Part shown: in pieces, positions 6,138-7,037 of the stretch
Layout: each line of letters begins with the position of its first letter
How positions within the stretch are numbered: position 1 is the first letter of the stretch
Source of the DNA: a virus
Lineage: Duplodnaviria > Heunggongvirae > Uroviricota > Caudoviricetes
IMG/VR virus record: IMGVR_UViG_2711768004_000003
Strand: one strand, 5' to 3'
DNA: 9,858 bases
Program-made: the position numbers and the translations under genes
The notes under the pieces: generated by a model
Seen by the model: only the letters and a program-made list of their open reading frames with translations
Databases searched by the model: none
Told to the model about the DNA's origin: nothing

Positions 6138-6161
6138 AAAAAAACCCGCTCATCGGCGGGT
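6138..6161 (-). terminator. Rho-independent terminator after the moron gene
   Basis: Minus strand reads AAACCCGCCGATGAGCGGGT followed by a 7-T run: 6-bp GC-rich stem (plus 6144-6149 with 6156-6161), 6-nt loop, U-tract from plus 6138-6144. It lies about 75 nt past the ORF stop at 6239. Confidence 0.7.
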
Positions 6162-6238
6162 TTAAGCTGTGTGGCGTAGTAACCACTCTTAACAGGATAT
6201 TCAACTTTTTACGATCGTAAAGTTTTCGGAAAAAATTT

Positions 6239-6802
6239 TTAAAACCGCATCAACCGCTCCACCAGTTGCTCTTTACGGGCAACGATCCACCCGTGTTGCT
6301 CCAGATAAAATTTAAACCGTTCCAGAGTACATACCATCGCATCGGCGGGTACCTTTTCCGTGAACTCAACCTGACCGTGTTTATCGAAGTGGCTCAGTAA
6401 TGCGCATCCATCATTTTCGATAGATGTGTTTTGTGCCGCTGGTGGCTGTTTCTGGTTGAAATAACAGTCTTCCAGTTTTTCGAACACTTCCCACGCCTGA
6501 TCGGTTTCGAGCATTTTGGCGTGACGGGCTGCGCCACGTTCTGTCCAGAGGATGAGGGAGCGAACGTTACGGGCAATTTTCACAGAAACTCTTAAAGAGT
6601 TTTCGTTCTTCAACTCTCGTAACGCATCACCTTCTATCAGGAAAAAATGTTTACCTTCTATAAACCGTTCTTTGTTTCGATTGAAATTGTTTGTCAAACG
6701 CTGGCGCTCTGTTCCGTACAAATCAGCCAGCAGCTCTGTTGTCATGACAGGAAGATGGTTATGCGTAAGTGACGGGAGTTTTTCAATAGACGTGCGATTC
6801 AT
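6239..6802 (-). CDS. ORF6N-like (KilA-N/Bro-type) phage DNA-binding protein; candidate moron or antirepressor-like gene
   Basis: 187-aa product from ATG 6802-6800 with AAGGA 8 nt upstream. N-terminal half (LPVMTTELLADLYGTERQRLTNNFNRNKERFIEGKHFFLIEGDALRELK ... LWTERGAARHAKML) resembles the ORF6N domain from memory; the C-terminal 70 aa is unrecognised. The ORF track extends it to 7000 through a region with no SD that overlaps a promoter. Confidence 0.65.
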   Translation of the reverse strand: MNRTSIEKLPSLTHNHLPVMTTELLADLYGTERQRLTNNFNRNKERFIEGKHFFLIEGDALRELKNENSLRVSVKIARNVRSLILWTERGAARHAKMLETDQAWEVFEKLEDCYFNQKQPPAAQNTSIENDGCALLSHFDKHGQVEFTEKVPADAMVCTLERFKFYLEQHGWIVARKEQLVERLMRF

Positions 6803-7008
6803 AGACATGTCCTTTCGAATATTTTGATTTACCCCTTTTGAGAGGGTGACCGGGCGCTCAAAACCGTCGAAAGTCGGCGGGCGTATTTCCATTGCTGGTA
6901 TTGTATTAGCCGCACACCCGGTCATAAACCAAGAATTCTGGACACAAAAAAACCACATGGCTATCGGGTGTGGATACCGCTTTCGAGGTGTTTTGAGCAC
7001 CGCGGGGA

Positions 7009-7037
7009 AATGTAAACTGCAAACCTGAAACTGTCAA
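7009..7037 (-). promoter_or_regulatory. Candidate sigma70 promoter for the moron gene
   Basis: On the minus strand: consensus -35 TTGACA (plus 7032-7037), 17-nt spacer, -10 TACATT (plus 7009-7014). The -35 sits in the loop of an inverted repeat AACCTGA/TCAGGTT. It would give a leader of about 200 nt. Confidence 0.5.

Follow-up and report, generated by a model that had tools for sequence, protein, structure and literature searches.

Organization of the ant locus

We analyzed a stretch of 9,858 nucleotides (nt) from a Caudoviricetes virus (IMG/VR record IMGVR_UViG_2711768004_000003), referred to below as the window, and focused on the segment between the gene for the Q antiterminator and a cluster of tRNA genes. 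This segment contains a gene, here called ant, which encodes a 187-residue protein with an ORF6N domain that is homologous to AnrP of the Salmonella prophage Gifsy-1. The gene is preceded by a promoter, a candidate decoy RNA and an RNA of the C4 antisense class. On the evidence set out below, this unit is likely to be a cassette for an RNA-gated antirepressor, of the kind known from the immI locus of phage P1 and the isrK-anrP locus of Gifsy-1. The minus strand is the coding strand of every gene in the window, and coordinates given in descending order refer to this strand.

The ant gene extends from an ATG at position 6802 to a stop codon at 6241-6239, and its Shine-Dalgarno (SD) sequence AAGGA (6814-6810) is located 7 nt ahead of the ATG. 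Two alternative starts were rejected, namely an in-frame ATG at 6808, which is too near the SD sequence, and an in-frame N-terminal extension from an ATG at 6926, the frame of which is closed in the related locus L103. A near-identical protein of Shigella sonnei, the species after which the closest homologue cluster is named, is likewise annotated with 187 residues at NCBI. The promoter assigned to the unit (TTGACA-17-TACATT, 7037-7009) has 10 of 12 matches and a predicted start near 7002. By itself, the promoter scan was no better than chance (4 sites seen versus 2.1 ± 1.5 expected). Both hexamers are kept over diverged spacers in the related loci L077, L078, L081, L103 and L001 and in phage Nil2, the -10 hexamer in the relatives ends about 10 nt ahead of the first pairing site of the transcript (b1, see below), and the GenBank record of Nil2 carries a 'promoter by homology' at the equivalent position. 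Downstream of ant, a 3' untranslated region (UTR) of about 80 nt and a strong intrinsic terminator (together 6241-6142) complete the unit. In the terminator itself (6163-6142), an 8-bp stem that includes 5 GC pairs precedes a U run. This segment occupies the position that IsrJ has in Gifsy-1, but it is not homologous to IsrJ, since the Rfam scan gave no isrJ match in the window at E ≤ 1, whereas Gifsy-1 itself gives isrJ at 100 bits. The 3' UTR of ant could be the source of a 3'-UTR-derived small RNA (sRNA). The promoter, the 187-codon open reading frame (ORF) with a good SD sequence and the strong terminator, which had been proposed in an earlier reading of the bare letters (the sequence-only reading), are thus all present on the minus strand.

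A structured RNA and its complementary sites upstream of ant

When all Rfam families were scanned against the window, four matches exceeded their gathering scores, all of them in the Q-to-ant interval and in the orientation of the genes. Three belong to a cassette directly after Q (cassette 1), which is treated further below. The fourth lies between the 7037-7009 promoter and ant (cassette 2) and is an 84-nt C4-class antisense RNA of the sRNA-Xcc1 subtype (6923-6840), which matches the full sRNA-Xcc1 model (RF02221, positions 1-87) with 77.4 bits against a gathering score of 53. Its architecture is C4-like: a closing stem of 9 bp encloses two internal hairpins, and the 3' tail reads ACCC. A covariance model (R1) made from six Xcc1-type copies retrieved 25 copies from phage contigs and gave the window's RNA a score of 109.7 bits. 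In the resulting alignment, which was fitted to the model, 99% of the cells are paired and 11 of 21 pairs show compensatory changes, values that were reached in 0 of 500 shuffles.

Ahead of this RNA, sequence and fold delineate a candidate decoy RNA (7002-6946). It would start with site b1, GCUCAAAAC (6998-6990), which is displayed in a hairpin (GGUG-CUCAAAA-CACC), continue with site a1, UCGAAAG (6986-6980), and end in a weak terminator composed of a 5-bp stem (6973-6953) and seven U residues (6952-6946). The loop of this decoy terminator shows a recurring CCCGAYAG motif, for example CACCCGAUAGCC and CGCCCGACAGAC, in diverged modules (24 loci). The Xcc1-type RNA itself presents two recognition elements, a' (CUUUCGA, 6873-6867) in the loop of hairpin 2 and b' (GUUUUGAGC, 6864-6856) in its 3' junction. 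Beyond it lies a target region on the ant mRNA (6842-6810) with CUCAAAA in a hairpin loop (6842-6836), site b2 (UCAAAAU, 6827-6821) and site a2 (UCGAAAG, 6818-6812), the last of which overlaps the SD sequence. Element a' is exactly complementary to both UCGAAAG copies, a1 and a2, and b' is complementary to b1 as well as to b2. The calculated duplex energy of the a'b' segment is -36.6 kcal/mol with the decoy and -19.9 kcal/mol with the ant UTR, and cross-cassette control duplexes are weak (-8.9 and -12.9 kcal/mol). What had been taken for a leader of about 200 nt is instead occupied by a putative terminated decoy, an Xcc1-type RNA and complementary sites adjacent to the SD sequence. No conserved icd-like ORF was found between the Xcc1-type RNA and ant, and a2 abuts the SD sequence of ant itself. 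In the loci L096 and L097 (1290-1490), a real ORF of about 65 codons lies between the C4 a2 site and ant, an arrangement that is nearer to the P1 c4-icd-ant layout than that of the window.

Co-variation of the pairing sites across related modules

To compare pairing between modules, duplex prediction on whole RNAs with RNAduplex was abandoned because it gave long, meaningless duplexes. We replaced it by k-mer complementarity at fixed positions, with own-versus-cross pairing as the control. By this measure, the a' loop has a match of at least 6 nt to a site that abuts the SD sequence (at +20 to +30) in 21 of the 23 modules, as against 8 of 472 cross-pairs between modules of different specificity, and it matches the upstream (decoy) site in all 23. 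At least 17 different versions of a and about 9 of b occur in these modules, and the loop and its sites change together: CUACUGA occurs with UCAGUAG, CUUUCUG with CAGAAAG, and CCUAGGA with UCCUAGG. Moreover, each of the 24 Xcc1-type modules examined has, after the upstream sites, a small hairpin and a stretch of at least five U residues, which suggests that the upstream sites are released as a short RNA, like IsrK. C4-type cassettes obey the same rule, with b1 and a1 located within IsrK and b2 and a2 ahead of the SD sequence of ant. Located 3' of Xcc1-type RNAs are genes for ORF6N, Rha or Bro-N proteins. An ORF6C domain is present in some of them, and the usual annotation of these families is antirepressor or phage regulator.

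The ant protein

The N-terminal part of the ant product was suspected from the letters to be a DNA-binding domain of the ORF6N/KilA-N type, and profile searches bear this out: residues 13-97 match Pfam ORF6N (PF10543) with E = 8.8e-21 and 74.4 bits against a gathering score of 27.8, and the protein also resembles viral proteins named 'KilA-N DNA-binding'. The full length is covered by PHROG 2379, 'anti-repressor' (E = 4e-85). There are 4660 homologues at E ≤ 1e-5. AnrP of Gifsy-1 (SL2578/STM2616) is of equal length and shares 49% identity over 184 of the 187 residues (E = 6e-58). Expression of AnrP leads to increased transcription of the antQ operon and to induction of Gifsy-1, and on its own the protein is non-toxic (PMC4825925). 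An NCBIfam search with the protein gave no match, no solved structure was found among its sequence relatives, and a scan of genome contigs with the protein returned only distant relatives and no close context.

Residues 133-186 are predicted to form a β-hairpin and two helices, with lower model confidence, and structural comparison of this part gave no specific match. These residues are well conserved in close homologues, yet they are the most divergent stretch relative to AnrP, and the Ant proteins of Shiga-toxin (Stx) phages have other domains in their place. This combination fits a specificity module.

An antirepressor was one of several functions offered by the sequence-only reading, and it is the best-supported one, given the homology to AnrP and the experiments on AnrP. 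It is unlikely that the protein is instead a transcription factor, either an activator or a repressor, which binds DNA through its winged-helix-like ORF6N domain rather than binding a repressor. The resemblance to the KilA-N proteins would agree with such a role. On the other hand, the PHROG families that match the full-length protein are all labelled anti-repressor, although these labels are annotations and not tests, and the related Ant of phage Phi24B, which has a C-terminal domain like that of P22 Ant, promotes induction.

It has also been suggested that the unit is a moron. In the plain form of this explanation, the ORF6N protein would be made constitutively in the lysogen as a conversion, superinfection-exclusion or defence factor and the leader would be just a leader. 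A promoter, a gene and a terminator are indeed there, the interval between Q and the lysis genes is a site of variable cargo, and PADLOC gave weak matches to the candidate family PDC-S05 (E = 1e-7). These matches are due to the ORF6N domain alone, and they offer little for a role in defence or exclusion. Against a plain moron, the leader holds a structured RNA with a fold that is backed by covariation, and the SD-adjacent sequence co-varies with the loop of this RNA over at least 17 specificities. Furthermore, PisrK in Gifsy-1 transcribes through a leaky terminator into anrP, and this homologue is transcribed in the lysogen but not translated (280 versus 4 Miller units for transcription and translation; Hershko-Shalev et al. 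2016, PMC4825925). That AnrP alone is non-toxic and induces the prophage also speaks against it, and we regard the plain moron as very improbable. Expression in the lysogen from the unit's own promoter, which the sequence-only reading had deduced, thus probably holds for the RNAs but, to judge from the Gifsy-1 homologue, not for the protein.

A second cassette directly downstream of Q

Cassette 1 starts 5 nt after the Q stop codon (7283) with a promoter, TTGACC-18-TATATT (7278-7249), that is the homologue of PisrK. It is followed by an IsrK-type decoy sRNA (7255-7166), which matches both Rfam isrK (7242-7166, 77.5 bits, gathering score 50) and Rfam c4-a1b1 (7255-7203, 50.1 bits, gathering score 46.7). 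Within it lie b1 (UUGGAAC, 7217-7211), a1 (GAGACCG, 7202-7196, after hairpin 2) and an intrinsic terminator (7187-7171). The C4-class antisense RNA of this cassette (7140-7057; Rfam C4, 71 bits, gathering score 45) carries a' (CGGUUUC, 7098-7092) and b' (GUUCCAA, 7085-7079), and the latter is the exact complement of b1 and b2 of cassette 1. Of the corresponding mRNA target, a residual b2 target, GAUUGGAAC (7055-7047), is left. From b2 (7053-7047) the sequence leads directly to the -35 hexamer of the 7037-7009 promoter, and the a2 site and SD sequence of single-cassette relatives are absent there.

The loop of IsrK hairpin 1, GCAAAAUC (7229-7222), is identical in the IsrK homologues compared and is the partner of no C4 element; Stx2a phage F765 has a different loop. 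This loop is complementary to the b' junction of the Xcc1-type RNA (GGUUUUG; 7 pairs, one of them G-U), and it might connect the two cassettes.

In most relatives the layout is short and Gifsy-like (isrK-C4-ant). An extra segment of about 220 nt between C4 and ant, which holds the 7037-7009 promoter and the Xcc1-type RNA, occurs in the window, in Escherichia coli EC12 and in the viral contigs L077, L078 and L081. In Nil2, isrK-C4-antA is followed by promoter-Xcc1-antB, each cassette having its own ant gene. Judged by its sequence, the window looks like a Nil2-like stack of two cassettes in which the first ant gene has been lost. Xcc1-type RNAs are also arranged in tandem elsewhere: L103 (1163-1453) has two tandem Xcc1-type RNAs with differing a and b codes ahead of one ant gene, an island of Xylella fastidiosa Temecula1 has five Xcc1-type RNAs at a spacing of about 380 nt, and X. 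fastidiosa De Donno has Xcc1, isrK and C4 consecutively (PMC12189769). In two of the stacked loci, b' of the C4 RNA does not match the b2 that follows (GUUCCAA and UUGGCGU in L077, 1157-1262; GUGCUAA and UUGGAAC in L081, 1158-1262), and these mismatches point to recombination precisely at the boundary of the RNA and the target that follows it.

From the letters, what follows Q had been read as a Q/pR'/tR' unit. A related explanation of the locus is that ant is an ordinary late gene, with the promoter after Q as pR', the IsrK terminator as tR' and Q-modified polymerase transcribing ant. This explanation draws on the position of the promoter, which follows Q immediately in the window and in Gifsy-1, and on the lack of any other obvious promoter/terminator pair in the interval from Q to the lysis genes, save a weak promoter-like site (TTTGCA-18-TATTAT, 6088-6059) ahead of the tRNA cluster. 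A search for a separate pR' revealed none that was convincing, and the sequence behind a related Q gene in O157 is unrelated and was of no help in this respect. However, the promoter-IsrK-C4 cassette follows two distinct Q genes, the 135-codon PF06530 type in the window and a 225-codon phage 82-like type in Gifsy-1. In Nil2 (nin region) and in Stx2a phage F765 (next to int/xis), the cassette is found far from Q and has kept its promoter, and Nil2 has a separate tR' annotated downstream of its own q gene. The presence after two different Q genes and at sites away from Q marks the element as a portable cassette that is not demonstrably pR'/tR'. In addition, Q read-through alone would not open a blocked SD sequence. 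Altogether, we find the late-gene explanation rather doubtful, and what follows Q is an IsrK/c4-a1b1 element with its C4 RNA. The idea of a portable, variably present unit with its own signals has stood up well: such units are found after Q in the window and Gifsy-1, in the nin region of Nil2 and on the int/xis side in Stx2a phages, and a comparison of related prophages included one that has an 83%-identical Q gene and lacks the unit.

Gene neighbourhood and occurrence

Upstream of the locus, the window encodes a DnaB-like helicase (9816-8284), RusA (8030-7659) and the 135-residue Q antiterminator (7690-7283; Pfam PF06530, E = 3e-52). Downstream of ant lies the tRNA cluster (6049-5739) with genes for Met-CAU, Arg-UCU, Thr-UGU and Gly-UCC. 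The Thr and Gly genes are about 98% identical to tRNA genes of the host E. coli, and an E. coli search with the Q-to-tRNA segment was dominated by matches to host tRNA genes. A run of 351 N bases (5325-5675), either masked or unsequenced, separates the tRNA cluster from the holin gene; the ORFs listed across this run (5143-5731) were dismissed as artefacts of the mask. The genes downstream of the N run encode a holin, a lysozyme, Rz, an HNH endonuclease and a terminase. An ORF for an Rz1-like lipoprotein (4247-4429) is embedded out of frame in Rz (region 4185-4661), and the HNH endonuclease gene is located directly upstream of that for a P27-family small terminase (region 3792-4142), the usual HNH-terminase packaging pair.

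The exact 187-residue protein is recorded in about 3900 assembly-index blocks, in chromosomes of about 4.8-5.0 Mb that are rich in insertion sequence (IS) elements, and part of the region is matched in 1349 of 5426 complete E. coli genomes. In the Shigella-like chromosomes L023-L030, genes for IS3-family transposases are found within about 3 kb of the DnaB-like gene. Such a gene adjoins the DnaB-like gene in four of these eight loci, and in L027 one follows the HNH gene. The host prophage is probably defective, and the action of its antirepressor cassette may be limited to other prophages, in trans.

A model for RNA-gated expression of ant

In the model that we favour, the 7037-7009 promoter would start a transcript of which the first 55 nt or so carry b1, a1 and the leaky terminator of cassette 2, and copies that end there would constitute the decoy RNA. 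Read-through copies would extend into the 84-nt, tRNA-like RNA and then into the 5' UTR and ant. The assignment of the decoy, the antisense RNA and the ant mRNA to this one promoter draws on sequence and conservation. The 84-nt RNA would presumably be excised and accumulate; the c4 RNA of P1 is excised from its own transcript by RNase P. Through a' and b', the 84-nt RNA would pair with b2 and a2 on the ant mRNA, and the overlap of a2 with the SD sequence would leave Ant untranslated in the lysogen. The decoy has the longer complement to the same segment, and in excess it would titrate the antisense RNA and thereby open the ribosome-binding site. The Ant protein would then inactivate a prophage repressor and promote induction, a step that is suggested by the homology to AnrP. 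Co-variation of the sites argues for silencing of ant by the antisense RNA and for titration by the decoy, as do experiments on Gifsy-1, in which IsrK supplied in trans raised anrP translation about 140-fold (PMC4825925). Most likely, the promoter serves to make immunity RNAs, and these would keep Ant switched off in the lysogen. The RNA families, the RNA fold, the three-way co-variation of pairing sites, the overlap with the SD sequence, the homology to AnrP and the mobility of the cassette are shown by the present analysis, and we infer the processing of the RNA, the direction of regulation, the titrating role of the decoy and the repressor that is targeted.

Several points weigh against this model. 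The authors of the Gifsy-1 study interpreted their results in terms of alternative cis structures and a coupling to the small upstream orf45, with no antisense/decoy pair, and they saw no relief of IsrK toxicity when the C4-equivalent RNA was co-expressed (PMC4825925). At the window locus, the switch is read from sequence and analogy, and it is by analogy too that the 84-nt RNA would be excised and act in trans. The antirepressor function leans on the 49% identity with AnrP, and the C-terminal half that likely determines the target is the least conserved and was modelled with low confidence. Lastly, the neighbouring IS elements make the prophage look defective, and the switch may therefore have no cognate repressor left.

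The Gifsy-1 data lead to a competing explanation, in which a silent fold of the long transcript is remodelled in trans by the short sRNA and ant is coupled to a small ORF, no free antisense RNA being involved. Mutational and native-gel data from Gifsy-1 speak for it (PMC4825925), and so does the extensive complementarity between the decoy and the downstream RNA, which would allow the same pairing in cis. However, the orf45 equivalent in the window, which has 76 codons, stops at 6906, about 100 nt ahead of the ant ATG, and its length varies from 8 to 76 residues in relatives. Coupling of the AUGA type is thereby impossible, a functional role for the 76-codon ORF was rejected on account of its non-conserved length, and we did not carry this part of the Gifsy-1 model over because the coupling ORF is not conserved. 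Moreover, a2 and b2 co-vary with a' and b', which a purely cis helix between decoy and RNA does not require, and a stable processed RNA of about 80 nt (STnc1160) arises from the read-through transcript in Gifsy-1 (PMC4825925). A cis mechanism of this kind therefore appears quite improbable for the window.

With regard to RNA-gated cassettes in general, our comparison suggests that the IsrK, C4 and sRNA-Xcc1 families of Rfam are parts of one switch design. A broader proposition is that the whole sRNA-Xcc1 family is a second lineage of P1-c4-type immunity RNAs, each with an upstream terminated decoy and SD sites at an antirepressor-type gene (ORF6N, Rha or Bro-N), with a 7-nt code and with stacked locks; we consider this as probable as its negation. 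If it is true, a reprogrammable two-part 7-nt code would define many heteroimmunity classes, and stacked cassettes would put two locks on a prophage and could lead to interference with, or resistance to, antirepressor release by co-resident phages. Antirepressors allow prophage induction without the SOS response and mutual triggering of co-resident prophages. Spontaneous induction is influenced by the tightness of their gating, and so, among relatives of the window, is the biology of Shiga-toxin phages. By reading the 7-nt recognition code off genome sequences, one could predict which prophages have RNA immunity in common, and an abundant cassette now has a concrete, testable reading.

Comparison with known systems

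Among the closest known counterparts is Gifsy-1, in which the order of elements is alike: Q, promoter, IsrK with a leaky terminator, a C4-like RNA (STnc1160), a 187-residue ORF6N protein, tRNA and lysis genes. Its IsrK scores 79.3 bits, compared with 77.5 bits in the window. The differences are that the window has the additional cassette of about 220 nt between C4 and ant, which bears the SD-adjacent sites, that the orf45 stop codon overlaps the anrP start (AUGA) in Gifsy-1 and there is no such overlap with the ant start in the window, and that IsrJ follows anrP in Gifsy-1 only. The Q proteins also differ (225 residues, annotated as phage 82-like, versus 135 residues, PF06530), as does the b specificity (GGCGU in Gifsy-1 versus GGAAC in the window).

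The principle is known from the immI loci (c4-icd-ant) of P1 and P7, in which the c4 RNA pairs around the ribosome-binding site and blocks ant translation (reviewed in PMC12197685). As in the window, a C4-fold RNA lies upstream of ant on the same strand (7140-7057 and, for the Xcc1 type, 6923-6840 in the window), the antisense RNA comes from the transcript of its own target, its a' and b' elements are complementary to a2 and b2 at the ribosome-binding site, a duplicate a1/b1 pair is located upstream, the product is an antirepressor, probably so in the window, and sequence variants give heteroimmunity. Unlike immI, the window has no conserved icd-like ORF and has a2 at the SD sequence of ant itself, its a1 and b1 sites end in a terminator and so form a separate sRNA, and the RNA next to ant belongs to the sRNA-Xcc1 family, outside the C4 clan of Rfam. 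The CI RNA of satellite phage P4 (seqA/seqC), which the Gifsy-1 authors name as a structural analogue of IsrK (PMC4825925), is similar in being a processed RNA that pairs with sites up- and downstream on its own transcript. By its description, however, it acts by premature transcription termination of replication genes and not by occlusion of the ribosome-binding site of an antirepressor.

Among Stx phages, F765 has isrK-C4-ant beside int/xis, and the N-terminal 124 residues of the Ant proteins are about 66% identical to those of the window protein. These cassettes differ from the window in the C-terminal domains of their proteins (P22-Ant-like in Phi24B) and in their genomic positions. An ant knock-out of Phi24B was assayed with a pR'-lux reporter during norfloxacin induction, and its authors propose that Ant promotes efficient induction. 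Nil2 differs from the window in that its first cassette has an ant gene (antA), whereas the first cassette of the window has none.

According to its description, the sRNA-Xcc1 family (RF02221) is an sRNA that is encoded by an integron of Xanthomonas, acts in trans and is controlled by HrpG/HrpX. The window copy, in contrast, is cis-encoded; it directly precedes an antirepressor gene and has cognate sites to either side. In the literature searched, sRNA-Xcc1 is treated as a virulence-linked sRNA and no link to c4 was found, and Rfam lists no clan for it. Xcc1-type RNAs as C4-class regulators with a decoy and SD-adjacent targets, as well as the stacking of such cassettes, therefore seem to be undescribed in that literature. 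Both the principle and the gene are already known from P1 immI and Gifsy-1 isrK-anrP, and the window is an instance of this known principle.

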